A stretch of DNA of 64,000 nt from Thermodesulfovibrionia bacterium (GCA_020053105.1 JAGVNU010000030.1:21838-85837), one strand, 5' to 3'. Positions 34,758 to 53,216 are shown, counted from the stretch's first letter. Made by a program: numbers and translations. The notes: generated by a model from the letters alone, not told the origin.

Positions 34758-36413
34758 ATGAAAAGTGATTTAATTAAAAAAGGACTGGAAAGAGTACCGC
34801 ACAGGGCCTTGCTGTATGCTACGGGAATTCCCCGTTCTGAGATGAATAAACCCTTTATCGGGGTAGCCACAAGCTTTACGGATATTATCCCCGGGCATGC
34901 CGGCATGCGTGACCTTGAAAGGTTTATAGAAAAAGGCGTCCATACCGGCGGCGGTTATCCGTTCTTCTTTGGAATTCCCGGGATTTGTGACGGCATTGCC
35001 ATGGGGCACCGCGGGATGCATTACAGCCTTGCTTCAAGGGAACTGATCGCGGACATGGTTGAAACCGTTGCCGAGGCCCATCAGCTGGACGGCCTTGTGC
35101 TTCTCACTAATTGTGACAAAATTACCCCTGGAATGCTAATGGCAGCTGCCAGGGTCAATGTCCCGTCAATAGTGGTCACCGCCGGTCCCATGATGTCAGG
35201 GCACTTAAGAGGCAAGAGACTTTCATTCGTAAATGACGCCTATGAAGCAATCGGCAAATATAAAAAAGGACTTCTGACTAATTCCGACCTGGCAGAGCTG
35301 GAGGTATGCTCCTGTCCCGGAGCAGGGTCCTGTCAGGGGATGTATACTGCAAACACGATGGCCTGTGTGACCGAGGCCCTCGGTATGAGCCTTCCCGGAT
35401 GCGCAACCGCCCTCGCAGTGTCGTCAAAAAAGCGGAGACTTGCATTTGAAAGCGGCAGCAGAATAGTGGAACTCGTGAAAAAGAATATAACACCCCGGAA
35501 GATATTGACCCAAAAGGCCTTTGAAAACGCAATCAGGGTAGATATGGCATTAGGAGGCTCAACAAATACGGTTTTACATATTCCGGCAATCGCTCACGAG
35601 GCTGAGGTATCTCTGTCCCTGGAACTATTTGATAAAATAAGCAGCAAGACCCCTCATATCTCCAATATGCTGCCGGGCGGGACCCATTATCTGGAAGACC
35701 TCGATTATGCAGGCGGGATACCGGCAGTTTTCAAGAGATTGAAATCCAGCCTGAATAACGCTGCCACCATTTCGGGCATGAAAACATTCGACATTGCCGA
35801 CAAGGCTGAGATCATAGATCCTGAAGTTATAAGACCGCTCAACAAGGCATACCATAAAGAAGGCGGTATAGCGGTCTTAAAGGGCTCTCTTGCCCCTGAC
35901 GGAGCAGTGGTAAAACAGACGGCAGTGAGCAGTAACATGATGCGATTCAAAGGCAAGGCAAGGGTGTTTAACTCAGAGGAAAATACAATGAAGGCCATTC
36001 TCTCAGGAAAGATCAGGCCCGGTGACGTTGTAGTCATCCGGTACGAGGGGCCTAAGGGCGGGCCTGGCATGCGTGAGATGTTAAACGCAACCGCCACTAT
36101 AGCCGGCATGGGAATGGGCGAGTCAGTGGCATTAATAACCGACGGACGTTTTTCCGGGGGAACAAGGGGGCCGTGTATCGGCCATGTATCTCCGGAAGCA
36201 ATGGAAGGCGGCCCTATTGCAATTGTCAGGGACGGCGATATTATCAGTATTGATATACCGAAAAGAAAAATTGATTTACTTGTGAAAGAAGAAGAGATAA
36301 CGAAGAGATTTAAAACACACAAGGCGATTAAACCCAAAATAAACAAGGGCTGGCTTGCGAGATACGCTAAATTAGTGACCTCGGCAAGCACAGGCGCAGT
36401 GATGAAGTCGTAG
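34758..36413 (+). CDS. ilvD: Dihydroxy-acid dehydratase
   Basis: [38 protein letters not shown]. Confidence 0.97.
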
Positions 36414-36462
36414 GGCAAAGTCATCTCGCCCTTCAAGGTTCAAAATTAAATATGGAGATAAA

Positions 36463-38193
36463 ATGAAAAAAAGCGGCGCTGAAATATTGATTGAATGTCT
36501 GAAGAAAGAAGGGGTAAAACACATCTTCGGTTATCCGGGAGGCGTGGTCCTCAATATCTTTGATGTTCTTTATTATGCAAAAGATATTGAGCTTATCCTT
36601 ACCAGGCATGAACAGGGGGCAGTACATGCGGCAGACGGTTATGCAAGGGCAAGCGGTAAAGTCGGTGTTGTGCTTATTACCTCAGGTCCCGGAGCAACCA
36701 ACACGGTAACCGGAATTGCCACCGCCTCGATGGATTCCATCCCGCTTGTGGTGTTTTCCGGACAGGTGCCGACTATGCTCATCGGAAATGACGCGTTTCA
36801 GGAAGCAGACATAGTAGGGATCACAAGGCCATGTACAAAACACAATTTCCTTGTAAAAGACGTTAAGGACCTCGCACAGACTGTGAGAGAAGCATTTCAC
36901 ATAGCATCTACGGGAAGACCGGGCCCTGTTTTAATAGACCTGCCAAAGGACGTGACAGCGGGTTCAACCGATTTCATCTGGCCTGAGGAAGTCAAGATCA
37001 GAAGTTATAACCCGACGTATCACGGGAACAAATATATGATAAACCAGGCCGCTCAGATGATAGCACAGGCGAAGAAGCCTGTCATAATGGCCGGAGGGGG
37101 CGTGATATTATCAGGCGCGTCAAAAGAGCTGAAGGAATTGGCGGAGCTTGCAAAAATGCCTGTTACCATGACCCTGATGGGGCTCGGCGGATTTCCCGGG
37201 ACCAATAAACTGTCCATGGGCATGCTTGGCATGCACGGCACATTTTATGCCAACACAGCCGTTCAGAATTCAGACCTTCTCATAGGAATCGGTGTGAGGT
37301 TTGACGACCGCGTCACTGGAAAGACCGACTCGTTTGCTCCTCATGCAAAGATAATCCAGATTGACATTGATCCGACATCAATCAGGAAAAATGTACGGGT
37401 GGACCTGCCGGTAGTCGGAGATGTAAAAAACGTATTAAAAGACCTGATAAAGGTACTCAAGGAATCAAAAGAACAGTGGGGCGCGATCAGAAGCTCGTGG
37501 CTAAAGCAGATAGACAAATGGAAAGAGGAAAGACCTCTCACATACAGATTTGACAAAAATATCATCAAACCCGAATTTGTCGTGGAAAAGATATACGAAC
37601 TCACAAAAGGTGAAGCGATAATCTGCACCGAAGTGGGACAGAACCAGATGTGGGCAGCACAGTTTTACAAATATGATCAGCCGAGAAAATTTGTATCTTC
37701 CGGCGGGCTCGGGACCATGGGGTACGGGTTCCCTGCCGCAATCGGCGCCCAGTTCGCATGTCCTGACAAAGTTGTCATTGACATAGCAGGAGATGGAAGC
37801 ATCCAGATGAACATTCAGGAACTGGCAACCGCAGTCATCAATAAACTGCCGGTTAAAGTGGCGATCCTGAACAACGGCTACCTTGGAATGGTCAGGCAGT
37901 GGCAGGAATTGTTCTTCAAAGAGCGTTATTCTCATACGCACCTTGAATCCGGGAACCCTGATTTCGTCAAGGTCGCAGAGGCCTATGGCGCAGTAGGATT
38001 AAGGGCGACTAAGCCGGAGGAAGTGGCGCCTGTTATCAAAGAGGCGCTCAAGGTAAAGAACCGTCCGGTCTTTATGGACTTCGTCGTGGACTGGAAGGCA
38101 AAGGTCTTCCCGATGGTCCCTGCGGGAGCGGCAATAGACCAGATGATATTCAATGAAGAAAAAGAAGAGAAGAAACTTAAGGCAGTGAAATAG
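36463..38193 (+). CDS. ilvB: Acetolactate synthase large subunit
   Basis: RHEQGA, SGPGATN, GMLGMHG, GDGS...NN TPP motif, MVRQWQ. Confidence 0.97.
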   Translation: MKKSGAEILIECLKKEGVKHIFGYPGGVVLNIFDVLYYAKDIELILTRHEQGAVHAADGYARASGKVGVVLITSGPGATNTVTGIATASMDSIPLVVFSGQVPTMLIGNDAFQEADIVGITRPCTKHNFLVKDVKDLAQTVREAFHIASTGRPGPVLIDLPKDVTAGSTDFIWPEEVKIRSYNPTYHGNKYMINQAAQMIAQAKKPVIMAGGGVILSGASKELKELAELAKMPVTMTLMGLGGFPGTNKLSMGMLGMHGTFYANTAVQNSDLLIGIGVRFDDRVTGKTDSFAPHAKIIQIDIDPTSIRKNVRVDLPVVGDVKNVLKDLIKVLKESKEQWGAIRSSWLKQIDKWKEERPLTYRFDKNIIKPEFVVEKIYELTKGEAIICTEVGQNQMWAAQFYKYDQPRKFVSSGGLGTMGYGFPAAIGAQFACPDKVVIDIAGDGSIQMNIQELATAVINKLPVKVAILNNGYLGMVRQWQELFFKERYSHTHLESGNPDFVKVAEAYGAVGLRATKPEEVAPVIKEALKVKNRPVFMDFVVDWKAKVFPMVPAGAAIDQMIFNEEKEEKKLKAVK

Positions 38194-38207
38194 ATTGTCA
38201 GTTGTTT

Positions 38208-38276
38208 GTCATTCCCGCGAAGGCGGATATCCAGAACATATTTAAAATACTGGATTCCCGTTTCCACGGGAATGAC
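38208..38276. repeat. Palindromic miniature element (GTCATTCCCG...CGGGAATGAC type)
   Basis: 10-bp perfect terminal inverted repeat with inner ATCCAG/CTGGAT stem, between ilvB and ilvN. Confidence 0.7.
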
Positions 38277-38313
38277 GCTAAAGCAAATCTCTAAACAAAT
38301 TCGAGGAGAAAAC

Positions 38314-38805
38314 ATGCGTCATACAATTTCGGTGCTTGTAGAAAATAAATTCGGGGTCCTTTCGAGAATCTCCGGGTTGTTCAGTGGAAGGGGTTATAAC
38401 ATCGAAAGCCTTTCAGTAGGTGAAACAATTGACCCGGCAGTTTCAGTTATGACAATTGTTACAACAGGTGAAGACCAGGTAGTTGAACAGATAACAAAGC
38501 AGCTTAACAAGCTCATTGACGTCATCAAGGTCGTGGACTTCATGGAGATCGAGCACGTAGAAAGGGAGATGGTCCTCGTAAAGGTCTCTCCGAGAAAGGA
38601 AGACCGCATCGAGGTCTTGAGACTCGCGGAGATATTCAGGGGCAGGATAGTCGATTCAGGGACAACGACATTCACCATAGAAATCACCGGTGAAGAAAAA
38701 AAGATAGCCGCCTTCATCGAACTCGTCAAGCCCTTCGGCATAAAAGAGTTCGTCCGCACCGGCAAGGTCGCCATCGCCCGTGAAGGGGTTAAGAAAGCGA
38801 AATAG
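38314..38805 (+). CDS. ilvN: Acetolactate synthase small subunit
   Basis: [36 protein letters not shown] domain; SD GAGGAG. Confidence 0.96.
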
Positions 38806-39000: not shown

Positions 39001-39672
39001 TTGTTAATAGGCCTTGAATTAGTCCTCGGGGTAGACAACGTTCTGGTGATCGCCATCTTCGTGGGACGCCTGGAGGAGTCACAGAGAAACAGGGCAAGGC
39101 TTCTGGGTTTAAGCCTTGCCCTGATCGCCAGGATTGTGATGCTTGTCATCGTCCTGGCCCTTGCCAGTCTGACAAACCCGGTCATATGGAATTTATCGGC
39201 CAGGGATTTGATCCTGCTTGCGGGCGGGCTGTTTCTGTTGTATAAGGCGGTGCGGGAGATACATCATACAGTTGAGCTGAGGGAAGAGGCGGAGATGGCC
39301 GCGAGGAAGAGCCCGGGTAATTATTTCAATATCATTCTGCAGATCGTGCTTTTAGACATCGTATTTTCCATTGATTCAGTAATAACAGCCGTTGGATTAA
39401 CGAATAAATTGTGGGTCATTATAGTCTCGGTGCTGGTGTCTTTTGCCGCTATTCTCGCTTATGCAAAACCTATCGGCGAATATATCATCCGGCACCCGGC
39501 GCTGAAGATCCTGGCCCTGTCGTTTCTGATAACCATCGGCGTGACCATCTTTATGGAAGGAATGCACAAGCATGTTCCCAAGGCCTATATTTACCTGCCG
39601 ATGGGGTTCGCGTTATTGGTGGAGATACTGCAGATGAGATATGCATTTAAAAAGAAGGCCCTGCGGCTGTAA
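39001..39672 (+). CDS. TerC family membrane protein
   Basis: LELVLGVDN, LDIVFSIDSVITAVG, PKAYIY; true start may be ATA 38974. Confidence 0.9.
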   Translation: MLIGLELVLGVDNVLVIAIFVGRLEESQRNRARLLGLSLALIARIVMLVIVLALASLTNPVIWNLSARDLILLAGGLFLLYKAVREIHHTVELREEAEMAARKSPGNYFNIILQIVLLDIVFSIDSVITAVGLTNKLWVIIVSVLVSFAAILAYAKPIGEYIIRHPALKILALSFLITIGVTIFMEGMHKHVPKAYIYLPMGFALLVEILQMRYAFKKKALRL

Positions 39673-39695: not shown

Positions 39696-41054
39696 CTATG
39701 CTTCCAATCCGTATTTTTTCAGTTTTCTCCAGAGCGACACCCTGTCTATGCCGAGTATCTGCGCTGCAAGTGTTTTATTTTCTCCGGCCTCTTTTAATAC
39801 CCACTTTATATAAGACTCTTCCTGCTCCTGAAGAGACGGGATCTTGCCTTCTTTTTTCCTGAAAGTCCTGATGCTCAATTCCCTTAAATCCTCCGGCAGA
39901 TGGACCACCTCGATTGCATTGCCGTTTGAAAGCGCGACACCCCTTTCCATGATATTTTCCAGTTCCCTTACATTGCCCGGGAAATCATAATTCATCAAAA
40001 GGCCTATTACATCCGGAGATATTTCAGAAACGTCCTTTTTCATAAGAGTCGCATACTTTTTTAAAAAATAATAGCTTAAAAAAGGGATATCGTCTTTTCG
40101 CTCCGACAAAGGGGGAATAAACAAAGAGACAACGTTTATCCTGAAATAAAGGTCCTGCCTGAAAAGCCCCTCTTTTATCGCGCCCTGTATGTCCCTGTTG
40201 GTGGCAGCCACGAACCGGACATCGGCTTTTATTGAGGCAGTCCCCCCGAGCCGCAGGAACTCTTTCTCCTGAATCGCCCTTAAAATCTTGACCTGCATGG
40301 AAGGCGGCATCTCCACTATCTCATCAAGGAATAAAGTGCCGCCTGAGGCCATTTCTATCAACCCTTTTTTCATCTCGTTGGCCCCTGTAAACGCACCCTT
40401 TTCATGTCCGAAGAGTTCATTCGACAGAAGCTCCTCAGTAAAAGCGCCGCAGTTGATCGCGAAAAAAGGCCCTTCTGCGCGGCTGCTGTTAAAATGTATA
40501 TACCTTGCCATCAATTCCTTCCCGGTACCGCTCTCCCCCCTCAGCAGGACATTGCAATCCGTAGGCGCTATCTGCCGCGCGGTATCGAGGAGCCTCTGCA
40601 TATTGACATCCTGGGTCACTATCTTGACCTTCCCCTCATATCTCTCCAGTTGCTCCCTTAACTGAGCATTCTCTTTTTTCAGCCTGACTTTTTCAAAGGC
40701 CTCCTTTACTATCTTTCTGACTTCGTCGAGTTTGAAGGGCTTTGTTATGTAGTCATAAGCCCCTTCTTTCATGGCCATAATGGCTGACTGGACCGTTGCA
40801 TAACCGGTCATCATGATCACCTCGGTATCGGGATAGATATTCCGGCATTTCTCGAGTATCTGCGCGCCGTCCACTTTTTCCATCCGCAGATCGGTAAGCA
40901 CAACATCAAATTCCTGATTATCGAGAATCTTTAAAGCATTAGGCCCGCTGTTTGCCCCGACAACCTCATATCCTTCTTTTTTCATGGCGTGCACTAAATT
41001 TCTAAGTGCAATTTTTTCATCTTCTACGATCAGCATTCTTGTCTTGCCGTTCAT
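39696..41054 (-). CDS. Sigma54-dependent response regulator (NtrC family)
   Basis: REC; GESGTGKE, ELFGHEKGAFTGA, FLDEI, PGNVREL; Fis-type HTH. Confidence 0.95.
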   Translation of the reverse strand: MNGKTRMLIVEDEKIALRNLVHAMKKEGYEVVGANSGPNALKILDNQEFDVVLTDLRMEKVDGAQILEKCRNIYPDTEVIMMTGYATVQSAIMAMKEGAYDYITKPFKLDEVRKIVKEAFEKVRLKKENAQLREQLERYEGKVKIVTQDVNMQRLLDTARQIAPTDCNVLLRGESGTGKELMARYIHFNSSRAEGPFFAINCGAFTEELLSNELFGHEKGAFTGANEMKKGLIEMASGGTLFLDEIVEMPPSMQVKILRAIQEKEFLRLGGTASIKADVRFVAATNRDIQGAIKEGLFRQDLYFRINVVSLFIPPLSERKDDIPFLSYYFLKKYATLMKKDVSEISPDVIGLLMNYDFPGNVRELENIMERGVALSNGNAIEVVHLPEDLRELSIRTFRKKEGKIPSLQEQEESYIKWVLKEAGENKTLAAQILGIDRVSLWRKLKKYGLEA

Positions 41055-43075
41055 TTTATCAGCACCATATCAACAATATCTTCGACCCTGTCCACCAGAT
41101 GAATTTCGAGCCCCTTTTTAACATCCGCGGGAAGACCTTCAATATTCACATTGTTCCTCGACGGCAATATCACTGTACTCACCCCTGCCCTGCGCGCAGC
41201 CAGAAGCTTTTCCTTTATCCCTCCGACAGGAAGTATTCTTCCGCTCAGGGTCAATTCGCCTGACACAGCCACATCCCTTTTTGCCGGCCTTCCGGTCAAT
41301 AGCGAGATCAGGGAGATCACGATAGTTGCGCCTGCGGAAGGCCCGTCCTTGGGGATAGCTCCTGCAGGGACATGGACATGGATGTCCTGCAATTCAAAGA
41401 AGTTCTCGTCGATATTAAAAGAAACGGCGTTGCTTCTTATATAGCTCAGTGCGGCCTGCGCGGATTCACGCATGACAGTGCCGAGCGAACCCGTCAAAAT
41501 AAGTTCTCCTTTTCCCTTCATCTTGGCCGCCTCGACAAAAATAATGGCGCCTCCTGTTTCGGTCCATACGAGTCCGGTTGTAACGCCGACGCGGTTCTTC
41601 TCGTCCGCTACTTCAAAGTAATATTTTTTCGATCCAAGATATTTCTCTACAAGCTCAGGCGTTATCCTTAATACCTCTTCACCTTCCTTTGGAAACGAAG
41701 AGGCCCGGGCGGATTTCTGGACATGCTCAGCGGCTATTTTCCTGCACATGGCGGCAATCTGCCTTTCGAGATTTCTTATGCCTGCCTCATGGGTATATTC
41801 CTGAATGATCTTTAATACAGCCCCGGAAGAAAATTCCGGAGGAAACTCCGACAGGCCCTTTTCATGTATCTGTTTTGGAACAATATACCTCATGGCGATA
41901 TTCGCTTTTTCATCTTCCGTGTAACCCGAGAATTCTATTATTTCCATCCGGTCTCTAAGGGCGGCCTGAATATTGTCCGCGACATTTGCCGTTACAATAA
42001 ACATGACACTTGAAAGGTCAAAAGGCACGTCGACATAATGGTCGATGAAATTCAGGTTCTGCTCCGGGTCAAGGACCTCAAGCAAGGCTGACGCAGGGTC
42101 CCCCTTAAAATCCTGTCCCACCTTGTCCAGTTCATCGAGCATAATAACAGGATTGGACGATTCAACCCTGTTGATCTCATCGAGAATGCGCCCGGGCATG
42201 GCGCCTGCGTATGTCCTCCTGTGCCCCCTTATTTCAGCCTCGTCTTTGACACCGCCGAGTGAAATCCTGGCGAATTTCCTTCCAAGCGCATCTGCTATCG
42301 CCCTGCCCAGCGACGTCTTTCCTGTTCCGGGCGGGCCTGCAAAACAGAGCACAGAGCCTTTTGTAGAGCGGGTTGAAAATTTTTTCTCAAGCGCCTTTTT
42401 TACAACCGAACGGACGTCCTCGAGTTTAAACGGTTTTGCAATATAGTGAAAAGCGCCTTTCTTTATCGCATCCACGGCAGTATCTACGGAGGCAAAGCCG
42501 GTGATCATTATGACCTGCGTGTCGGGGTATTTATGTTTTGCCTTTTCCAGGACGTCTGTCCCGCTTATCTTCGGCATCTTGAGGTCGGTGATTACAACGT
42601 CAAAATCAAAATCCTCCAGCCTCTGAAAAGCCTCTTCCCCACTGCCGGCGGTGGCTATTGAATAACCTTCTTTTTTCAGCATATGCTCCAGATTCCGAAC
42701 GACTATGGACTCATCATCAACTATCAGTATCCGGGGGTTTTTGTTGGCCACAAGTATCTTGACAGCCAGATGCTCCAGTATCCTTTCTTTAATGCCCGTC
42801 AATCCGTAATGTCTTTCATCAAGGATCTTCTGCGCCCTGGCAAGGTCCAGATTGTCTTCTGTTTTTTTGTTCCAGGGCAGTCTTGTAAGATAGTCAATAT
42901 AGGCAAGCCCGATTGTATATTCTGCTACTGCGGGACTGATCTTTGACAGCATCTCGAACTCATTGTTGGCCACGAGTTGGACCTTGGGCGGCATTTTGGC
43001 GGCATTGATCTTCTGCCGCAACTCCTCCACGGCTTCAGACTGAATTTTTTCGTCCGATTTTTTGAAGATACCCAT
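41051..43075 (-). CDS. lon: Lon protease lacking the N-domain, with a receiver domain inserted in the AAA+ module
   Basis: LPW..HYGL..KERILEHLAV, then REC (VDDE, TDLKMP, ITG, AKP), then GPPGTGKT, RGHRRTY, LDELDK, PKDGPSAG, GGIKEK. Confidence 0.9.
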   Translation of the reverse strand: MGIFKKSDEKIQSEAVEELRQKINAAKMPPKVQLVANNEFEMLSKISPAVAEYTIGLAYIDYLTRLPWNKKTEDNLDLARAQKILDERHYGLTGIKERILEHLAVKILVANKNPRILIVDDESIVVRNLEHMLKKEGYSIATAGSGEEAFQRLEDFDFDVVITDLKMPKISGTDVLEKAKHKYPDTQVIMITGFASVDTAVDAIKKGAFHYIAKPFKLEDVRSVVKKALEKKFSTRSTKGSVLCFAGPPGTGKTSLGRAIADALGRKFARISLGGVKDEAEIRGHRRTYAGAMPGRILDEINRVESSNPVIMLDELDKVGQDFKGDPASALLEVLDPEQNLNFIDHYVDVPFDLSSVMFIVTANVADNIQAALRDRMEIIEFSGYTEDEKANIAMRYIVPKQIHEKGLSEFPPEFSSGAVLKIIQEYTHEAGIRNLERQIAAMCRKIAAEHVQKSARASSFPKEGEEVLRITPELVEKYLGSKKYYFEVADEKNRVGVTTGLVWTETGGAIIFVEAAKMKGKGELILTGSLGTVMRESAQAALSYIRSNAVSFNIDENFFELQDIHVHVPAGAIPKDGPSAGATIVISLISLLTGRPAKRDVAVSGELTLSGRILPVGGIKEKLLAARRAGVSTVILPSRNNVNIEGLPADVKKGLEIHLVDRVEDIVDMVLIK

Positions 43076-43099: not shown

Positions 43100-43262
43100 T
43101 GTTGCATAATGCAATCTCCGGCAATTCAGATGCAACGATATTTTTATATGGCCCCGCATTAATACTCAAAGGCCCGATATTAAGAGTTGAAACCCGGTGA
43201 AATATTCACCTCAAATTAGCCGTTTAAGTGCTTCCTATTTTATGGCAGATGCAAAATGCAAC
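43100..43262. promoter_or_regulatory. Candidate enhancer sites GTTGCA-N3-TGCAAC
   Basis: GTTGCATAATGCAAT (43101), ATTCAGATGCAAC (43124), GATGCAAAATGCAAC (43248). Confidence 0.5.
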
Positions 43263-43339: not shown

Positions 43340-43355
43340 CGGCACGGATATTGAT
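43340..43355 (+). promoter_or_regulatory. Candidate sigma54 promoter (variant -12)
   Basis: CGGCACGGATATTGAT: GG-N10-GA rather than GC. Confidence 0.45.
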
Positions 43356-43411: not shown

Positions 43412-43597
43412 ATGAAAATGATAAAACTTCTAAAAAAATTAGAGGATGTTTATGCAGCAGCCGCTTTCGCAGAAGCAGGCGAACACGAAACAGCAAGAGA
43501 AATCATGAGAGAGGAGAAGAGGACTGAGAAGAGAGATCAGATTACACCCAGGCCGCGCATTCAGTTAAGGGCCTCCGGAAGAGACCGGAAAAATTAA
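43412..43597 (+). CDS. Small protein with AAAFAEAGExETARE motif
   Basis: LEDVYAAAAFAEAGEHETAREIM; same motif opens the next gene. Confidence 0.75.
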   Translation: MKMIKLLKKLEDVYAAAAFAEAGEHETAREIMREEKRTEKRDQITPRPRIQLRASGRDRKN

Positions 43598-43628
43598 ACA
43601 GTAATTTCCTTGCACTCAGGGAGATGAC

Positions 43629-44108
43629 ATGAAAAAGTTGATAAAAAAATTTGAAGATGCGATGTGTGCAGCGGCCTTTGCAGAGGCAGGAGAATTTGAA
43701 ACTGCAAGGGAAATTGCAAAGGGAAGACAGAAGGTGCTGCTTACATTAACAGGAAATGTCTCTGACAGGAAATCATTTAAATATGCGCTTAATATCTGCA
43801 GGCGCATAGGCGCAGGGCTTGAGATCCTGAACATATCAAAGAATGATGAAATGCTTCAGATGTTAAAAGAATTCCAGAATGAACTGAAGAGAGGGGGTGT
43901 CGCGTGCGAGATTTTTCAGGAGAGTGGCTGCATAAAGGAGGCCATCATTCACCACACGGGAAAAAGGGGTGATATCCAGTTTGTGGTCGTTGAATCGTCA
44001 GATGCCTTAAATATTAAATGCAAAAAGGATGACAGAGAGCTTTCAAAAATTTGGGAGGGACTAAAGTGCCCTCTGGTCCTGGTTTCCGGGACGGGGCTTA
44101 AGATTTAA
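43629..44108 (+). CDS. AAAFAEAGE motif plus USP-like domain protein
   Basis: FEDAMCAAAFAEAGEFETAREI then KVLL...KYALNICRRIGAGLEIL...CPLVLV. Confidence 0.7.
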   Translation: MKKLIKKFEDAMCAAAFAEAGEFETAREIAKGRQKVLLTLTGNVSDRKSFKYALNICRRIGAGLEILNISKNDEMLQMLKEFQNELKRGGVACEIFQESGCIKEAIIHHTGKRGDIQFVVVESSDALNIKCKKDDRELSKIWEGLKCPLVLVSGTGLKI

Positions 44109-44139
44109 TAACCAATATTTAATGACCAAGGAGGGAAAT

Positions 44140-44391
44140 ATGTCACACAGCAATGTAAAAAGAAAGCCGGTCGGCAAGATGGTGCTGATGGGCGTAATAT
44201 CAGTGACGCTTTATGCGCTGCTGTTGTTAAAGCAGGATGTTATTAACGAGTATATCGGTCAAGGCGGCATGTATGCGTTCCTGCCGATAATAACGGCATT
44301 CTTATTCTCATTTGTTCACGGCACATTTACGGGCGACTTCTGGACAGTTATGGGTGTAGAGGCCGCAAAGAAGAAGAAGGAGGTAAAATAA
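44140..44391 (+). CDS. Small two-TM membrane protein
   Basis: SD AAGGAGG; FLPIITAFLFSFVHGTFTGDFWTVMG. Confidence 0.75.
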   Translation: MSHSNVKRKPVGKMVLMGVISVTLYALLLLKQDVINEYIGQGGMYAFLPIITAFLFSFVHGTFTGDFWTVMGVEAAKKKKEVK

Positions 44392-44392
44392 C

Positions 44393-45481
44393 ATGCACGA
44401 TATAGCACAAGTAGCGTCAAACTTTATAAATCTTGATATCATGACTATTTCGTACCTGTTTTTTGTCGGGTTTGTCGGAGGTCTCGTAAGCGGGTTCATT
44501 GGTTCAGGAGGAGCATTCGTGCTCACACCGGCCATGATGAGTCTTGGAGTGCCCGGACTTGTTGCAGTGGCAAGCAACATGTGCCACAAATTTCCCAAGG
44601 CACTTATCGGCTCTATCAAGCGGGCAAAATACGGACAGGTTGATGTGAAAATGGGAATTGTTCTCGGCATTTCTGCCGAAGCCGGAGTTCTTTACGGCGC
44701 GCACATTCAGGAGAGCATCAAAAAGTCATTCGGAGAGGCAGGTTCCAATCTTTATGTCAGCGTGGCCTTTGTGGTAATACTTGCTATAGTTGGCGGTTTT
44801 GTATTATATGACGCATGGAAGACCTACAAATCCGGAAATACCAACGAAGAAGAAAAGGTCACCAAGCTTGCGCTCTGGGTCCAATCCATTAACATTCCCG
44901 GCACAATGGTTTATTTCAAATGTCTGAATGCAAAGATTTCAGTTCTCTTCACCATCCCTCTTGGATTTGCAACCGGAATGCTGGCGGCAACAATTGCGGT
45001 AGGCGGGTTCATCGGGGTGCCTGCCATGATTTACGTCCTGGGCGCTCCAAGTCTCCTGGCTTCTGCAACTGAACTGGTAATAGCTTTTGTAATGGGACTC
45101 GGCGGCTCATTTAAATTTGCACTGCACGGACTCGTTGATATCAGGCTGGCCATGATTATCCTTGCAGGCTCTCTCTTCGGCATTCAGCTCGGAGCAATTG
45201 GGACGACTTATGTAAAGCCGTTCATGATTAAGGTTGTCATGGGCACAATTATGGTCATCGTCCTGTTCAGCCGTGGCTTGATGGTGCCTGTTTATCTCTC
45301 GGAGCTGGGCTTAATACAGACCTTGAGTGAAGGCACAGTGAAGATAATGAAAAACACAAGCTTCGGCATAATGATAACCGCATTGCTTTTGGGAGCATTC
45401 ATAGTGCTGCGCGCGATGTGGCAGGGGAAAAAGGCGGAGCAATTGGCAACGCAGGAAGCATACGAGCATGGTAAAATATAG
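44393..45481 (+). CDS. TauE/SafE family sulfite-exporter-like transporter
   Basis: GFIGSGGAFVLTP and IAVGGFIGVP repeats; polytopic. Confidence 0.87.
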   Translation: MHDIAQVASNFINLDIMTISYLFFVGFVGGLVSGFIGSGGAFVLTPAMMSLGVPGLVAVASNMCHKFPKALIGSIKRAKYGQVDVKMGIVLGISAEAGVLYGAHIQESIKKSFGEAGSNLYVSVAFVVILAIVGGFVLYDAWKTYKSGNTNEEEKVTKLALWVQSINIPGTMVYFKCLNAKISVLFTIPLGFATGMLAATIAVGGFIGVPAMIYVLGAPSLLASATELVIAFVMGLGGSFKFALHGLVDIRLAMIILAGSLFGIQLGAIGTTYVKPFMIKVVMGTIMVIVLFSRGLMVPVYLSELGLIQTLSEGTVKIMKNTSFGIMITALLLGAFIVLRAMWQGKKAEQLATQEAYEHGKI

Positions 45482-45483
45482 CA

Positions 45484-46338
45484 ATGGGTTTATACCGTAA
45501 GATACTCGTTGCCTTTGACGGATCAGAATCAAGCGTGAATGCCCTTTTACAGGCATTCACGCTTGCCAATGACGAAAAGTGCTGGATAACCGTCGCTACC
45601 ATAGTCCCGTCGTACGAAGGCGACCTCGATCTTACCGGAGTAAAGGACATTCATGAAACCCTCAGGCACACCGGAGAAGTAATCTCATCCAAAGCAAAGA
45701 CAATTGCAGATAAGGAAAGGGCCCTCATAAAAACAGTGGTTGAAGAAGGACCGCCTTTTGAAAAACTGGTTGAAATTGCGGAAACTGAAAACGCCGGGAT
45801 CATTGTCATGGGCAGACGGGGAATGTCCCGTCTTGAGAGGGCCTTTGTAGGCAGCGTTACGGCGCGCGTCATTGGACACAGCACAAGAGATGTGCTGGTC
45901 GTGCCGGAGCATGCGGCAATCGAATGGAAAAATATCCTTATTACGACTGACGGCTCAAAATACAGTGAGGCAGCCTCGAAGAAGGCGATAGCTTTCGCAA
46001 AGGCATACGGCGGGGAATTAAAGGTCCTTTCTGTGGTGGATGTCCCCCCGGAATTAAATGCAGAATCTCCGGCAACCGTGGAAAAGCTGATTAAAAAGGC
46101 AAAGGGATATGTCGAGGTTGTGAAGAAACTGGCGGAGGAGGCAAATGTAAGGACAGAGACCTTTGTGAGAGAAAGCGAAGCCTATCAGATAATAACCAGT
46201 ATTGCAAGAGAGCAAAATGTGGGGACTGTTGTAATGGGATCACACGGAAGGACCGGCCTGAAAAGACTCCTCATGGGAAGCGTTACCGAGAAGGTCATAG
46301 GACATACACTCTGCCCCGTGCTTGTTGTAAAACCCTGA
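45484..46338 (+). CDS. Tandem universal stress protein
   Basis: Two USP domains (ILVAFDGS...MGRRG...GSVT; ILITTDGS...MGSHG...GSVT). Confidence 0.92.
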   Translation: MGLYRKILVAFDGSESSVNALLQAFTLANDEKCWITVATIVPSYEGDLDLTGVKDIHETLRHTGEVISSKAKTIADKERALIKTVVEEGPPFEKLVEIAETENAGIIVMGRRGMSRLERAFVGSVTARVIGHSTRDVLVVPEHAAIEWKNILITTDGSKYSEAASKKAIAFAKAYGGELKVLSVVDVPPELNAESPATVEKLIKKAKGYVEVVKKLAEEANVRTETFVRESEAYQIITSIAREQNVGTVVMGSHGRTGLKRLLMGSVTEKVIGHTLCPVLVVKP

Positions 46339-46790: not shown

Positions 46791-48503
46791 TTGAAAAAGA
46801 TGAACTTAAAAATCTGGCATAAGATGATAATCGGTATCTCTATCCCTTCTCTTTTCACCCTGATCGGCGGCATACTGACGTACAGCTATATAAGTGATGT
46901 AAAGATAAGGCATGGTTATGTTCAGATTGCAGATGACTTAAAGGAGCAGGTGCTTGAAATCAGACGAAATGAAAAAAATTTTCTTCTTCACAAAGATGTG
47001 GAATATTACAGATATTTCCAGGATGCAATCTCCGGCCTTAACAAATCAGTCAACGCGATATCTCCGCCGACCGTTGTTGAAATAGGAAAAGATTTGTCCC
47101 TGCTTCGCGGGTCCGTACCGGCATATCTTGGTTTTGCAGATGACCTTTTCGAATATTATCAACAGGAAATCAATGTTGTTGAAAAGGTGCGTGAAGAGGG
47201 CAGAAAACTGGAAGCCTTTGTAGCAACGGGGAAGTACTCAAAGGATCTTACCACAAGCTTTATTCTTAATCTCAGACGTTTTGAAAAAAACTATGTGCTT
47301 TATCGTGATAATGTCTCTTATAACGAGTTGGAAAGCGCGCTTTCGCAAATTAATAATATAACCCCTTTTTGTTTTGACTGTGTTGAATATAAAGAGGCCA
47401 TCCATGACCTCTTTTCTACCTATAAAAAAATGGATGAAAAGGTAAATGATCTGCAGTCTACCGGGAATAAACTTGAAGAAACTACGTATAAAATAGCAAC
47501 CAGTGAAAGACAAAAGGTAAACTCTTTTTTTACTCGTACACAGCAGCATCTGGTCCTGGCCCTCATCTTACTCTGTATCCTGGGCCCGTTTTTTGTGAAT
47601 AAAACTGCAAGTTATATAGTCGCGCCGATTAAAAGACTCGCTGAAATTACAAAAAAAATTTCAGAGGGCGATTTAACACTAAGGGCGCCGCTCAAAGAGC
47701 ATGATGAAACCCATACGCTTGCACTGTCTTTCAATACCATGCTCGACCAATTGCAGTTAACACATGAATCACTGGGACAAAGCCTGGAACTTTTACATGC
47801 AAAACAGATAGAAGTTGAAAAACGCGCATCACTCGGTTTCCTTGTATCGGGTATTACCCATGAGTTGAATAACCCCCTGAACAACATATCCCTGACTGCT
47901 GAGACAATGAGGGAAGATATGGGTGAAATTACCCCTGAAGAGCTTAAAGAATATATCCAGGATATACTTACACAGAGTGAGCGTGCCAAGAATATTATAG
48001 CAGACCTTCTCGAATTTGTAGGTACGCAAAAGACCACAGTTATGGAGAAGATGGATATTGTAAATGTTATAGAAGAAGCAATCAGACTTGTTGCAAATGA
48101 GCTGAAAGTTGCCGGCATAAATTTAAAAACAGACCTCCCTAACAGCCCTTTTTTCGTATATGGAAACCATGGCAAATTAGAAGAAGTCTTCGTTAATATC
48201 ATTATAAATGCAATACACGCAATAAAAAATGAAGGAACACTGACAATAAATGCCAGGCATGATACAGTAACTAACCATATATTCATCCATATCTCTGACA
48301 CAGGGCATGGAATACCTGAGGAACATATAAAAAATATATTTGAACCATTTTTCACGACCAAGGAGGCTGGAGAAGGCACCGGACTCGGTCTGTCAGTCAG
48401 TCAGAGTATTGTACGGGAGCACAAGGGTGAAATTGACGTTGAGAGTGAAGTAGGCAATGGCACTACTTTCACAATTAAACTGCCTTTGTCAGGAATTCGC
48501 TAA
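46791..48503 (+). CDS. Membrane sensor histidine kinase (periplasmic helical repeats, HAMP, HisKA, HATPase)
   Basis: Two TMs, THELNNPL, SDTGHG, FEPFFTTK, GTGLGL; periplasmic PFCFDC. Confidence 0.93.
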   Translation: MKKMNLKIWHKMIIGISIPSLFTLIGGILTYSYISDVKIRHGYVQIADDLKEQVLEIRRNEKNFLLHKDVEYYRYFQDAISGLNKSVNAISPPTVVEIGKDLSLLRGSVPAYLGFADDLFEYYQQEINVVEKVREEGRKLEAFVATGKYSKDLTTSFILNLRRFEKNYVLYRDNVSYNELESALSQINNITPFCFDCVEYKEAIHDLFSTYKKMDEKVNDLQSTGNKLEETTYKIATSERQKVNSFFTRTQQHLVLALILLCILGPFFVNKTASYIVAPIKRLAEITKKISEGDLTLRAPLKEHDETHTLALSFNTMLDQLQLTHESLGQSLELLHAKQIEVEKRASLGFLVSGITHELNNPLNNISLTAETMREDMGEITPEELKEYIQDILTQSERAKNIIADLLEFVGTQKTTVMEKMDIVNVIEEAIRLVANELKVAGINLKTDLPNSPFFVYGNHGKLEEVFVNIIINAIHAIKNEGTLTINARHDTVTNHIFIHISDTGHGIPEEHIKNIFEPFFTTKEAGEGTGLGLSVSQSIVREHKGEIDVESEVGNGTTFTIKLPLSGIR

Positions 48504-48508
48504 CAAAA

Positions 48509-48895
48509 ATGAATAAGACACGCATCATGATTGTCGATGACGAGCCGATCGTAGGGAAAAGACTTAAACGATTGCTTGAAAAAGACGGTTACGAAGTCGA
48601 GATTTTCACAAAGGGCTCGGTTGCGCTTGAAGAATGTGACCGGAAACATTTTGATATTGTCATAACCGACCTCAAAATGGGCGGTGTCGACGGCATGAAG
48701 GTTCTCGAAACTGTAAGGGGGAAAAACCCGGACACAAAGGTAATTATCATCACGGGTTTCCGCAAAATGGAATCATCGAATGAGGCATTCATCAAAGGGG
48801 CGTTCGATTATCTTGTAAAGCCGTTTAAAATTGAAGACCTCAAGCGGATCATCAAAAAAGCGGAATCCGAATTGAAAAATTCCTCCGGGCAGTAA
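48509..48895 (+). CDS. Single-domain response regulator
   Basis: IVDDE, ITDLKM, ITG, VKP. Confidence 0.92.
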   Translation: MNKTRIMIVDDEPIVGKRLKRLLEKDGYEVEIFTKGSVALEECDRKHFDIVITDLKMGGVDGMKVLETVRGKNPDTKVIIITGFRKMESSNEAFIKGAFDYLVKPFKIEDLKRIIKKAESELKNSSGQ

Positions 48896-48941: not shown

Positions 48942-49835
48942 TTACCGGGCTTTTACCACCAGCACGGCGCAATCAGCAAGTCCGATAACTCGTTCGGTTA
49001 CGCTCCCCATGAAGAGTTTCACAAGTCCGGTCCTGCCGTGACTACCGACTACAATGAGGTCTGCCTTGTTCTCTTTTGCCGTTTCGATGATAGCTTCGTA
49101 CGGCCTTCCTGCAAGGATGAATCCTTTGACCCTGACCCCGTTTTCTTCAGCGAGCTTTTTTACGTTCTTAACATTTTTTTCTGCTTCCTGAAATTCCTTA
49201 TCAGAGATGGCCCCTCTTTGCATTTCAGAATGAACGATAGCAAAAGGTGATTCAGCTTCTGAAGGCACAACAGAGATCACGATGAGGTTGGAGTCGCAGC
49301 TTTTTGCAATGCTGATCGCCTCGCTTATCGCCGCGTCACTGTATTTTGAGCCGTCGATTGCTACGATAATATTCCTGAATTCAACTCTCGCCGCCCTTGG
49401 GACTACGAGCACTTTGCAAGGGGCATGTCCTATGACCCTTGCGGTCTCACTACCCATCATAAGCCTCTTGAGACCTTTCCTCCCGCGTCTTCCCATGATT
49501 ATCATCTCGGCCTTGTTTTTCTCTGCCTCTTCAACAATGTATTTATAAGGCTCCTCGCCCTGGTGCACTATTATTTCGCAGTCAACCCCTTCTTTTGAGG
49601 CCCTCTCTTTTACGGCTTCAAGGCGCTGCCTTGCCTCTTTTTCAGCCTTCTCGACAAGCTGCGGGGCCATAATTTCGAATTCGGGATTTGTCTCAACAAC
49701 AGAGACGGCAAGCAGCCTGCTTGAACAGGTCTTTGAAAGATTTATCGCCTCTCTCACGGCGCCTTCACTGAATTCAGAGCCGTCTGTGGATAAAAGCAAC
49801 TTTTCAAGTTTTGCCGCCGGGCAATATTGTGCCAT
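48942..49835 (-). CDS. Tandem universal stress protein
   Basis: Two USP domains; paralog of 45484. Confidence 0.92.
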   Translation of the reverse strand: MAQYCPAAKLEKLLLSTDGSEFSEGAVREAINLSKTCSSRLLAVSVVETNPEFEIMAPQLVEKAEKEARQRLEAVKERASKEGVDCEIIVHQGEEPYKYIVEEAEKNKAEMIIMGRRGRKGLKRLMMGSETARVIGHAPCKVLVVPRAARVEFRNIIVAIDGSKYSDAAISEAISIAKSCDSNLIVISVVPSEAESPFAIVHSEMQRGAISDKEFQEAEKNVKNVKKLAEENGVRVKGFILAGRPYEAIIETAKENKADLIVVGSHGRTGLVKLFMGSVTERVIGLADCAVLVVKAR

Positions 49836-49836
49836 T

Positions 49837-50256
49837 TTAATGACCTCCTGCTGTTAAGATTCCTGATGCTGCAAGCAGAAGTACACAAACCTCCAACAAA
49901 GCTATTATGAGGTAGGTGGTGTCCTTTTTTCTGATAAATATCGGAACTACTCTCAAATAACATGCCATCGTTACTCCCGCAAGCACAGCGACCCCGATGA
50001 AATTAAGCATATCTCCATTATTGAGCAAAGAGGCCCACCCCCACCCCACAGGGGCGCCTGTCTCGTGGATATAGTCGGCGGCGCGCAATTTCCAGAGGCT
50101 CTGCAGCTTATTGAAATCCACCACATTCGGCAGAAGTCCGCTTACATAAATTATAAAAGTTATTACAAGAATACCGAGCCCGGTCCATGCGCCGTTGCCA
50201 AGAAGACCTGCGTACGCCAATTGTTCCTCAGATGCCTTTGGTTTATCATCGTTCAT
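49837..50256 (-). CDS. DUF1634-like membrane protein
   Basis: EEQLAYA, PVGWGW, GDMLNF, LLAASGIL; directly downstream of TauE. Confidence 0.75.
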   Translation of the reverse strand: MNDDKPKASEEQLAYAGLLGNGAWTGLGILVITFIIYVSGLLPNVVDFNKLQSLWKLRAADYIHETGAPVGWGWASLLNNGDMLNFIGVAVLAGVTMACYLRVVPIFIRKKDTTYLIIALLEVCVLLLAASGILTAGGH

Positions 50257-50266
50257 GTTTATCCTC

Positions 50267-51244
50267 CTAATTCCAAATTCCTAGGCCCTTCAACAAGGCC
50301 CTCAAGCCTGACACAAACAGCAGTCCTATTACCATCCATTTAATAACTTTGGGCTTTGCCGTCGCAAGGATTTTTACGCCTATTCTGGAACCAAGCATGA
50401 CTCCAATAACGGAAGGCACTACCATGAGAGGCAGGACCGCTCCTTTGTTAATGAAAACCCATGCAGCAGCAGTATCTGTTATCGAAAGCAGGAATACACT
50501 CGATGCAACGGATACTTTTAAAGGAGCGCCCATAAGGAGATTCAGGACCGGCACATTTGCCCATCCGGCGCCGAGACCGAACATGCCGGCCATAACTCCA
50601 ATTATGATAAACAGGAATAACGCCTGCGGCGTCCTGTGGACATGCCATTCAATGTCTTTTCCAAGCGATTCCTCGCGATATATTCCCATTATCCCCAATG
50701 CGGAGGAAAGCGCGTCAGGCTTCGGCACAATAGGGAAGTCGGATTTTTTTGCAAGAAGCAGAATGAAGACTATCCCTATTATTGTCGCTCCAAGGAGTGT
50801 CTGGACTATATTTGTCGGAAGTGCAAGACCTATCATCGCGCCTCCTATTGCCGCGGCTGATGCGATCAGCGCCATAGGCATTGAGAGCCTGAGGCTTGCA
50901 AGATTTCTCTTGAGAAGTCCTGGTCCGGCTGCCAGCGCTGTGGATAATGCAACCAGCAACCCGGTTGCTCTCACAAAATCGAGATGAAAAGGGAAAAATC
51001 CGCTGACAATAGGGACATAAAGAACTCCGCCGCCTACGCCGCCGAGCACGGCCACAATTCCAAGAACAAATGTAAACACAAACAAAGCTAACGGCCAGAC
51101 CCACCATGCAACATCGGAAGTTGGTTCCTGAGAAAGTGTTAAAGCTTCTGTAGATGCAAACGCGGTGGCAACTCCCAGGATTAAAGTTAAAAATACCATT
51201 ACTGCTACGAAAGTCTTTAAAATTTTGAGTGTACCTGGCAACAT
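50267..51244 (-). CDS. TauE/SafE family transporter
   Basis: LGGVGGGVLYVP, FGLGAGWANVP; start ATG 51244 after AAGGAAGGA. Confidence 0.87.
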   Translation of the reverse strand: MLPGTLKILKTFVAVMVFLTLILGVATAFASTEALTLSQEPTSDVAWWVWPLALFVFTFVLGIVAVLGGVGGGVLYVPIVSGFFPFHLDFVRATGLLVALSTALAAGPGLLKRNLASLRLSMPMALIASAAAIGGAMIGLALPTNIVQTLLGATIIGIVFILLLAKKSDFPIVPKPDALSSALGIMGIYREESLGKDIEWHVHRTPQALFLFIIIGVMAGMFGLGAGWANVPVLNLLMGAPLKVSVASSVFLLSITDTAAAWVFINKGAVLPLMVVPSVIGVMLGSRIGVKILATAKPKVIKWMVIGLLFVSGLRALLKGLGIWN

Positions 51245-51319
51245 TAATTTGTCCTTCCTTATTATGAGATTTGATTTATTGCAAATACTGTTATCGGGTA
51301 TCGAGAGCAAGACATCATT

Positions 51320-51355
51320 GTTTCAAATTGCATCAGAGCCTGCTTATTTTGCAAC
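51320..51355. promoter_or_regulatory. Pair of candidate enhancer sites similar to those at 43.1-43.3 kb
   Basis: GTTTCAAATTGCATC and TGCTTATTTTGCAAC. Confidence 0.4.
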
Positions 51356-51589
51356 AAACCGGTTTATATCATAATGAACTGAGCTGGATAAAATCAATAA
51401 AAATGAGTTTATAATTATATAAGATTTTTATTAAGGACGGGAGCCGCGTAGAGAACGACAGGTGCGGACTACGGGAAGTTCTATAACAGAAAACACTATT
51501 TTACAATAAATTCACACTGTTCTCTTATGATATGGACCAAACAAAAGTCATCGGAGGAACACACTAGTTAAATCAAAATTAGGCGCCTA

Positions 51590-51670
51590 TTAACTGGTGG
51601 CCATAACAGCAACAAGAGCAATCAACAACGAAAAGAAAAATACAAAACCCAATGCCTTGAGAAATTTCAC
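51590..51670 (-). CDS. 26-aa single-TM small protein
   Basis: AAAGGAGG-N6-GTG; MKFLKALGFVFFFSLLIALVAVMATS*. Confidence 0.5.
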   Translation of the reverse strand: MKFLKALGFVFFFSLLIALVAVMATS

Positions 51671-51891
51671 GTCAAGCCTCCTTTCTTCTTTATGCCAAAA
51701 ATATATTTTCATGACTGGAGGAATTCATTACCAGCTCTCGCTGCATCGGCAAGAAAGCCTCCGGGTTTAAAGCTGTATGGGATAATTATGGACCTCCGCT
51801 ATGACCTTGTCTACTAAAAAAGATTAATGCGTACATAAGCTGTCTTGATTCGGCCCGTGGAATTACAACGGGGAAAATATCTGATGAGGAG

Positions 51892-53040: not shown

Positions 53041-53216
53041 AGATTGTCCCTGACTGCATAAGTATTTGTGGTTTGCTCAACTTCTTTAAATTGGATGTAA
53101 GTATACCAGTTTGTTTACGGCAAGTAAAATCTGCGGATTTTATATCATTTACTTTTTCCGCATCCTGTTATTTAACAATACCGTTAAAATATTGTATCCT
53201 AACATACGCAAAACAT

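Follow-up and report, generated by a model that had tools for sequence, protein, structure and literature searches.

A LonA-type protease with an inserted receiver domain, probably switched by a sensor kinase, in a Thermodesulfovibrionia bacterium

The 64,000-nucleotide (nt) stretch of DNA analysed here, which we call the window, comes from a Thermodesulfovibrionia bacterium (GCA_020053105.1 JAGVNU010000030.1:21838-85837). It encodes a LonA-type protease, hereafter REC-Lon, that has no N-domain and carries a complete receiver domain inserted into its ATPase, after the first AAA+ helix and ahead of strand beta1. Its conserved residues and its gene linkage suggest that proteolysis by REC-Lon is probably switched by a sensor kinase. 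The best overall explanation, to which we assign a probability of roughly 0.55, is that REC-Lon is a LonA of the kind represented by DVU3303 of Desulfovibrio vulgaris, that it forms one output of a branched two-component pathway, and that its ATPase or its ring is gated by phosphorylation.

Results

Pfam places the receiver (Response_reg) at residues 116-225 of REC-Lon (E 3.8e-30; 104.8 bits against a gathering threshold of 30.2), an AAA domain at 243-383, the lid (Lon_lid, PF22667) at 405-455 and the protease domain (Lon_C, PF05362) at 471-673 (E 2.5e-84). The same search yields no match at E <= 0.01 to the N-domain family LON_substr_bdg (PF02190), and none to the sigma54-interaction domain PF00158. 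REC-Lon passes TIGR00763, “endopeptidase La”, in two stretches (743.6 bits; cut-off 608.05) and does not reach the Escherichia coli-type equivalog NF008053 (589.6 bits; cut-off 891). When aligned to E. coli Lon (6u5z), residues 16-108 correspond to 251-343 and residues 237-672 to 346-771 (480.6 bits for the latter); in Bacillus subtilis Lon (3m6a), residues 12-108 correspond to 6-102 and residues 235-673 to 103-531. Because the flanking stretches align to solved Lons and abut one another in the B. subtilis enzyme, we regard the receiver as a clean insertion of some 126-128 residues (109-236), lying between the helix that ends in KERILEHLAV and the strand VLCFAGPPGTGKT. The N-terminus of REC-Lon falls at about residue 236-251 of E. 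coli Lon, at the start of the last quarter of the canonical N-terminal region, and residues 1-108 end in the AAA+ helix alpha0, which bears the conserved HYGL motif. REC-Lon thus shares the pre-AAA+ helical region, the lid and the S16 domain with canonical LonA (6u5z, 3m6a and Meiothermus 4ypl), and LonA chains are its top Foldseek matches; it differs from them in having no equivalent of E. coli residues 1 to about 250 and in the 128-residue receiver between alpha0 and beta1.

The signature residues of each part are present. In the receiver these are D120, D121, D164 (42584..42586), T192, Y211 and K214, each at its expected codon; in the ATPase, Walker A (GPPGTGK253TS), the pore loop (GHRRTY289) and Walker B (D314/E315). 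The Ser-Lys dyad, S580/K623, aligns to positions 679 and 722 of E. coli Lon (numbers counted from the alignment). An earlier note on this DNA, made by a model, had described a Lon without its substrate-recognition N-domain, with a complete receiver between KERILEHLAV and the strand before Walker A and with pore loop, Walker B and dyad intact. That description is borne out in every part by the missing PF02190 match, by an alignment to E. coli Lon that begins only at residue 251, by the receiver match and the junctions that the Lon alignments set, and by the presence of Y289, D314/E315, S580 and K623.

An AlphaFold2 model of the monomer (mean predicted local distance difference test score, pLDDT, 80.2) gives the N-terminal part the helices 3-25, 30-45, 51-65, 78-88 and 93-110. 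In the same model, receiver strand beta1 begins about 4 residues past alpha0, whereas receiver helix alpha5 ends at 235 and AAA+ strand beta1 starts at 242, a linker of about 6 residues.

This architecture is widespread. Each of the best 120 listed matches to residues 1-260 has PF00072 together with PF00004, and PF05362 is present as well in 119; the typical match is 666-725 amino acids (aa) long and comes from a Nitrospirota or Thermodesulfovibrionales record. The fusion is therefore not a chance event, and misassembly or a fusion artefact was ruled out by the hundreds of homologues that have the same junction. A 50%-identical representative led to a second large clade, in which the few members with names belong to Desulfobulbus or Desulfobulbaceae, among them Desulfobulbus propionicus DSM 2032. 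Multi-receiver proteins dominate the search of representatives with residues 1-260, in which about 25 of the 150 listed rows match the helical region and the receiver as a single stretch, many of these being fragments. In the window's own phylum, the junction of helical region, receiver and Walker A occurs in 51 of 301 sampled species genomes, its own genome counted (full-span match, E <= 1.5e-94), and was not found in three well-sampled families (0/50, 0/28 and 0/24 genomes). The REC-Lon family is common in anaerobic sulfur-cycle bacteria, namely the window's phylum, the Desulfobulbaceae and, according to the literature, Desulfovibrio.

Within the family, all 153 rows of 655-730 aa (among which the REC-Lon of the window counts twice) preserve Walker A (GxPGxGKTS), the pore loop (GHR[RK]TY) and the catalytic-serine motif DGPS[AS]G. 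Further, D120, D121, D164, T192, Y211, K214, K253, Y289, E315, S580 and K623 are invariant in all 54 aligned members. Both halves of REC-Lon, the receiver and the Lon, are by this measure under selection. The AAA+ large domain has the highest column conservation in the full-length family, 0.88 against 0.74 for the receiver. A quick maximum-likelihood tree separates the REC-bearing proteins from 14 canonical LonA sequences by one branch, with a Shimodaira-Hasegawa-like approximate likelihood-ratio test (SH-aLRT) value of 96, or 97 after removal of the receiver columns; given this small canonical sample, the tree is compatible with a single origin of the receiver insertion. Some relatives have REC-Lon genes that look broken: one (G209:C12:1252176-1252895) has two in-frame TGA codons, and at two loci (L047 and L050) the alignment is split; pseudogenes and assembly errors are both possible causes.

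The genome to which the window belongs is 83% complete and retains a canonical Lon, a 796-aa open frame on contig C33 that is its sole LON_substr_bdg match; REC-Lon is thus an extra, specialised enzyme. The idea that an N-domain is supplied in trans was rejected, as no stand-alone PF02190 gene was found in this 83%-complete assembly. Three more weak Lon_C-like matches occur in the genome (C42:29844-30155, C4:70177-70488 and C54:45563-45886), at 41, 35 and 21 bits and in open frames of 822, 857 and 521 aa, respectively.

The inserted receiver has a close sister next door. Downstream of REC-Lon lies the gene of a sigma54-dependent activator with a receiver of its own, and the two receivers are identical at 65 of 121 positions (54%) without a gap. 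Among the 54 REC matches in the genome, that of the activator ranks first after REC-Lon itself; a truncated paralogue of REC-Lon, described below, ranks second. Across 21 related loci, the receivers of REC-Lon and its activator are 47-63% identical (median 55), as against 30-53% (median 42) for the receivers of other activators in the same loci (14 values, after removal of 18 self matches). In the phylum sample, the second-best match in many genomes is a receiver in an open frame of about 455-475 aa that lies 3-4 kb from REC-Lon on the same contig. Helix alpha1 is nearly identical between the receivers of REC-Lon and the activator. Because alpha1 is the main kinase-docking surface of receivers, we infer that one kinase serves both.

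The stop codon of REC-Lon and the start codon of the activator gene share ATGA, an overlap of 4 nt. The overlap had been pointed out before; it is real here but peculiar to the window, for gene order differs among relatives. We found 47 related loci and counted the 44 in which the alignment to REC-Lon spans the receiver, three being dropped. An orthologous activator lies within 3.5 kb of REC-Lon in 23 of the 44, accompanied by a kinase in 20 of those 23. The order REC-Lon, kinase, activator, as in D. vulgaris, is seen in 10 of the 44 loci, a kinase-activator pair lies divergently upstream of REC-Lon in 10, and the activator directly follows REC-Lon, with gaps of 127-804 nt, in 3. The remaining 21 have no orthologous activator within 3.5 kb, and several of these loci end near the gene. 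Since gene order varies in this way, we regard the 4-nt overlap as a local feature.

Upstream of REC-Lon, and divergent from it, is an operon for a small protein, a Usp-like (universal stress protein-like) protein of 159 aa, a membrane protein, a TauE/SafE-family permease and a tandem Usp (Table 1). The 159-aa protein has no Pfam match; its atlas clusters are automatically named universal stress proteins, which we take as a lead only. Its homologue adjoins REC-Lon in 28 of the 44 related loci. A histidine kinase gene (46791..48503) closes the operon and is likely the phosphodonor of this system. Five nt beyond it is the gene for a single-domain receiver (48509..48895), 47% identical to that of REC-Lon and a possible third acceptor for the same kinase. 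A pair of kinase and single-domain receiver is also found convergent to REC-Lon in several relatives (L008-L011 and L035). The small open reading frame (ORF) and the 159-aa protein share the N-terminal motif M.KL[LI]KK[LF]ED...AAAFAEAGE.ETAREI, and a motif of this AAAFAEAGE type occurs only in these two places in the six-frame translation of the window.

The 553-nt region between the divergent genes contains two of the window's three copies of GTTGC-N5-GCAAC (counted with at most one mismatch; 1.61 expected per 64 kb). It also holds a sigma54-type promoter facing the Usp/TauE operon. An equivalent site, [TC]GGCA[CT]-N5/6-TG[TA], recurs at a comparable distance in 21 of the 22 such regions from related loci, the window counted. 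In the window's phylum (loci L006-L050), the -12 element of this promoter is TTGT or TTGA instead of the usual TTGC. Sigma54-dependent expression of REC-Lon itself was considered and dropped, as the 22 regions show no conserved site facing REC-Lon, the best scores (9.5-12.5) being scattered.

The window also carries a second, paralogous module (48942..54926). It is headed by a truncated REC-Lon paralogue of 382 aa (51892..53040), 47% identical to residues 1-381 of REC-Lon, that ends exactly where the AAA+ large subdomain ends and so has neither lid nor protease domain; nothing Lon-like occurs in the 580 nt past its stop codon. It retains the receiver residues and has degenerate forms of Walker A (GPSLEVQIS), the pore loop and Walker B. 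An AlphaFold2 model of the paralogue has the same order of secondary structure as REC-Lon (mean pLDDT 86.8). The truncated form recurs, with the same end point, in about 47 further database clusters of 348-386 aa. Of 50 such short rows, two of which are the window's paralogue, 49 preserve the receiver motifs and have ATPase motifs that are free to vary; the remaining row looks like a fragment of a full-length protein. Within this family, column identity is highest at alpha4-beta5 (0.91), followed by the receiver (0.77), the AAA-like part (0.60) and the helical part (0.52). In the tree, the family forms one monophyletic group inside the clade of Nitrospirota REC-Lon proteins (SH-aLRT 100 and 99). 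That the paralogue is a decaying pseudogene was ruled out by the clusters sharing its end, by the conserved receiver and by the absence of Lon-like sequence downstream. Among the 301 sampled genomes of the phylum, the truncated paralogue was found in the window's own only. This conserved truncated form is newly seen in the present analysis. The second module has a kinase gene divergent to the paralogue that resembles the first kinase by eye, and no activator gene.

Beyond the activator gene, on the opposite strand (34758..38805, +), three ORFs have the look of branched-chain amino-acid synthesis genes; by eye they resemble a dihydroxy-acid dehydratase and the large and small subunits of acetolactate synthase. 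They are followed by the gene for a TerC-family membrane protein (39001..39672, +; Pfam).

Table 1. Coordinates of REC-Lon, its parts and neighbouring features in the window
Feature	Position	Strand	Details
REC-Lon gene (LonA-type protease, receiver inserted, no N-domain)	41051..43075	-	674 aa; Pfam, NCBIfam, structure alignments
Helical region (residues 1-108), homologue of E. coli Lon 251-343	42752..43075	-	alignment 68.8 bits, E 4e-18
Residues 109-236, inserted receiver	42368..42751	-	Pfam REC 116-225 = 42401..42730
Residues 237-460, AAA+ large subdomain and Lon lid	41696..42367	-	K253 42317..42319; Y289; D314/E315; N364; R376
Residues 471-673, S16 protease domain	41057..41665	-	S580 41336..41338; K623 41207..41209
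Activator, REC - sigma54 AAA+ - HTH_8	39696..41054	-	452 aa; PF00158 E 5.9e-68; ATG overlaps REC-Lon stop
Palindrome GTTGCATAATGCAAT	43101..43115	.	26-40 nt upstream of REC-Lon ATG; matches DVU3305 motif GTTGC-N5-GCAAC
Second motif copy GATGCAAAATGCAAC	43248..43262	.	78-92 nt upstream of sigma54-type promoter
Sigma54-type -24/-12 site CGGCACGGATATTGAT	43340..43355	+	faces Usp/TauE operon
Divergent operon	43413..46338	+	small ORF, Usp-like protein, membrane protein, TauE/SafE-family permease, tandem Usp
Small ORF	43413..43598	+	about 61 aa; first ORF of divergent operon
Usp-like protein	43629..44108	+	159 aa
Membrane protein	between 159-aa protein and permease genes	+	89 aa; divergent operon
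TauE/SafE-family permease	44393..45481	+	divergent operon
Tandem Usp protein	45484..46338	+	divergent operon
Histidine kinase, HAMP-HisKA-HATPase	46791..48503	+	end of divergent operon
Single-domain receiver	48509..48895	+	5 nt past kinase gene
Second, paralogous module	48942..54926	both	paralogue, TauE-like permease, membrane protein, tandem Usp (-); kinase (+)
Tandem Usp of second module	48942..49835	-	
Membrane protein of second module	49837..50256	-	139 aa
TauE-like permease of second module	50267..51310	-	
Truncated REC-Lon paralogue	51892..53040	-	382 aa; 47% identical to REC-Lon residues 1-381
Second kinase	53073..54926	+	divergent to truncated paralogue

Discussion

A receiver-Lon fusion of this kind has a published precedent in D. 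vulgaris Hildenborough. In 2011, Rajeev described DVU3303, annotated as “ATP-dependent protease La, truncation”, as a response regulator “containing a lon protease” and suggested that its proteolysis depends on phosphorylation; together with the genes for a kinase, DVU3304, and a sigma54 response regulator, DVU3305, its gene makes up a “three-component system” (PMC3333781). The DVU3305 protein binds ahead of the operon that encodes it and ahead of the divergent genes DVU3302-3298, whose products are hypothetical, membrane and UspA proteins (Table S5); its two sites in front of DVU3303, GTTGCGATATGCAAC(A) and GCTGCATAATGCAAC(A), stand at -89 and -8, respectively (PMC3333781, Tables S7/S9). Kazakov (2015) lists DVU3302-DVU3298 as sigma54-dependent and marks DVU3303-DVU3305 as having no sigma54 promoter (PMC4641369). 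Trotter (2023) reports cofitness above 0.9 for every pair among DVU3303 through DVU3305 and a detrimental effect of these genes in chlorate, a condition in which the regulated gene for a putative anion transporter (permease), DVU3299, is beneficial (PMC10102598).

The parallels with the window are extensive. Both proteins combine a receiver with Lon AAA+ and protease domains and have no N-domain; both genes are linked to a kinase, to a sigma54 response regulator and to a divergent operon for membrane and UspA-type proteins. A GTTGC-N5-GCAAC site stands near the start codon of the protease in each case, at -8 in D. vulgaris and at -26 here. In both, a sigma54 promoter with a TTGT-type -12 element is found on the divergent operon only, the predicted DVU3302 promoter being TTGGCACGGGGCTTGTT (PMC3333781, Table S10). 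Further, orthologous activators, mostly accompanied by a Lon-type regulator, are listed for other Desulfovibrio, Thioalkalivibrio, Dechloromonas and Thermodesulfovibrio yellowstonii, the last of these from the window's phylum (PMC3333781). Given the match in architecture, gene neighbours, activator palindrome and promoter form, we place REC-Lon with the DVU3303 kind. The window differs in that no kinase gene separates protease and activator, whose genes overlap, and in that the candidate kinase ends the divergent operon; it also carries the second, paralogous module.

The earlier note had proposed direct control of the protease by His-Asp phosphorylation, which repeats the proposal published in 2011. 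Sequence evidence favours such control, because the receiver quintet is invariant, the catalytic residues of Lon are conserved, a kinase is linked and the two receivers are sisters. The pathway that we envisage would begin with one histidine kinase, here probably 46791..48503 and in relatives (10 of 44 loci) a kinase encoded between the two genes, that phosphorylates two sister receivers. Through the first of these, the sigma54 activator would act at the GTTGC-N5-GCAAC sites on the sigma54 promoter of the TauE-permease/Usp operon; through the second, REC-Lon would form the other output of the branched pathway. Phosphorylation of D164 would rearrange the alpha4-beta5-alpha5 face of the inserted receiver, and the short tethers of about 4 and 6 residues would pass this change to the adjacent nucleotide pocket, switching ATP hydrolysis, ring assembly or both. 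The AAA+ topology puts both tethers next to the nucleotide pocket, on the face turned towards the adjacent subunit, so a change at the alpha4-beta5-alpha5 face would be well placed to alter ATPase activity or assembly. As its N-domain is gone, REC-Lon may be expected, by analogy with N-terminally truncated LonA, to handle few substrates and to act as a regulatory protease of narrow range, not in quality control. The cofitness of DVU3303 with its partners suggests, by analogy, that REC-Lon works alongside the kinase and the activator and does not oppose them (PMC10102598).

Several points weigh against this picture. The putative membership of REC-Lon in the DVU3303 family rests on architecture, synteny, activator motif and promoter form. 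The AlphaFold2 monomer has a predicted template-modelling score (pTM) of 0.59 and low confidence at linker residues 237-239, and the model was used for secondary structure and confidence only. No result here points to activation rather than inhibition by phosphorylation. The cofitness in D. vulgaris could reflect polar insertions, DVU3303 being the first gene of its operon, and the signs of the chlorate effects (detrimental for DVU3303-3305, beneficial for DVU3299; PMC10102598) are unexplained by a picture in which the activator turns on the permease and the protease helps. The paralogue, with its dead ATPase and no protease domain, shows that the scaffold of N-terminal helices, receiver and AAA module can be retained for a function that needs no proteolysis. 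Among CC-licensed PMC papers and bioRxiv preprints, we found no biochemical or structural study of any receiver-Lon fusion. Finally, a scan of genome contigs with a single-protein query returned no Desulfovibrio locus, only loci of the window's phylum and canonical Lons (L053-L072), in which the match skips the receiver.

What the protease would act upon is a separate matter. The earlier note had wondered whether REC-Lon degrades the activator. In the most definite form of that idea, the receivers of the Lon and of the activator, both phosphorylated, would pair through their alpha4-beta5-alpha5 faces, and the protease would then destroy the active activator, giving negative feedback. The overlapping, co-operonic genes and the 54% identity of the receivers would suit this, and regulators are common substrates of Lon proteases; contact between the two proteins is not indicated by any result here. 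Loss of an antagonistic protease should give a phenotype opposite to that of the activator, and the mutants of the two in D. vulgaris instead behave alike, with cofitness above 0.9 (PMC10102598). The polarity caveat makes this a weak counterweight, but degradation of the activator stands unsupported, and we consider it unlikely. Another possibility is that the switched-on protease resets the stress response by removing products of the divergent operon: the Usp-like protein, the small proteins with the AAAFAEAGE motif or the TauE permease. The frequent adjacency of a homologue of the 159-aa protein (28 of 44 loci) speaks for this, the opposite chlorate fitness of the signalling genes and DVU3299 would fit it (PMC10102598), and the N-terminal motif of the two adjacent small proteins could conceivably be a tag. 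As these arguments draw on neighbourhood and one phenotype, and the role of the motif is a guess, we regard a reset, too, as improbable.

Other explanations take proteolysis out of the centre. The receiver might drain or buffer the phosphoryl groups of the shared kinase, as a sink or competitor, the protease being constitutive or minor. The near-identity of the two alpha1 helices would permit this, and the paralogue family, by keeping its receiver (0.91 column identity at alpha4-beta5) while its ATPase motifs decay, indicates that a receiver-centred function can be selected by itself. In the full-length family, however, the AAA+ large domain is the best conserved part and all catalytic residues are kept; an insertion 6 residues before beta1 is an unlikely design for a sink, and a single-domain receiver already follows the kinase gene. 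We therefore give the sink little credence. Less credible still is a pseudo-receiver that is never phosphorylated and merely stands in for the lost N-domain in oligomerisation or docking. The N-domain of LonA does support assembly and would need replacement, but D120, D121, D164, T192 and K214 are invariant in all 54 aligned members, and the gene is accompanied by those of a kinase and a sister receiver.

The truncated paralogue allows a more elaborate scheme. REC-Lon would be gated in cis, and the second kinase (53073..54926) would phosphorylate the paralogue, which would join or cap REC-Lon rings as a dead subunit or would serve as a decoy. We consider this a long shot. If it is true, proteolysis would depend on the balance of two signals, a two-input switch.

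The proposed gating of REC-Lon by its own receiver has a counterpart outside the proteases. The nearest solved relatives of the inserted receiver are those of the NtrC1/DctD activators (3dzd, E 1.2e-23; 1ny5, E 3.4e-21), and in both kinds of protein receiver helix alpha5 leads into an AAA+ core. In NtrC1-type activators, the state of the receiver controls assembly of the ring. REC-Lon has no long coiled-coil linker, its receiver is internal, and its output is proteolysis; as it also has no sigma54-interaction domain, it is not a member of that class. By analogy, it may nonetheless work like an NtrC1-type regulated AAA+ protein. The link between His-Asp signalling and an AAA+ protease is likewise familiar from RssB and CpdR, receiver proteins that steer proteolysis by ClpXP in trans. 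These are separate adaptors acting on ClpX, whereas the receiver of REC-Lon lies within the protease polypeptide. The matches of REC-Lon to the CpdR and RssB models of NCBIfam (72 and 63 bits, far under the cut-offs of 180 and 700) reflect the shared REC fold only.

As a rule, it is separate adaptor proteins that connect two-component signalling with regulated proteolysis. With a receiver built into the protease beside the nucleotide pocket, a kinase could switch an ATP-dependent protease directly. The dead-ATPase paralogues offer a natural variant in which the function of the receiver is separated from proteolysis. In D. vulgaris, the family sits in a stress/anion-export regulon with a chlorate phenotype (PMC10102598), and there the DVU3303 system, with a genetically tractable host and a defined regulon, makes the question directly testable.

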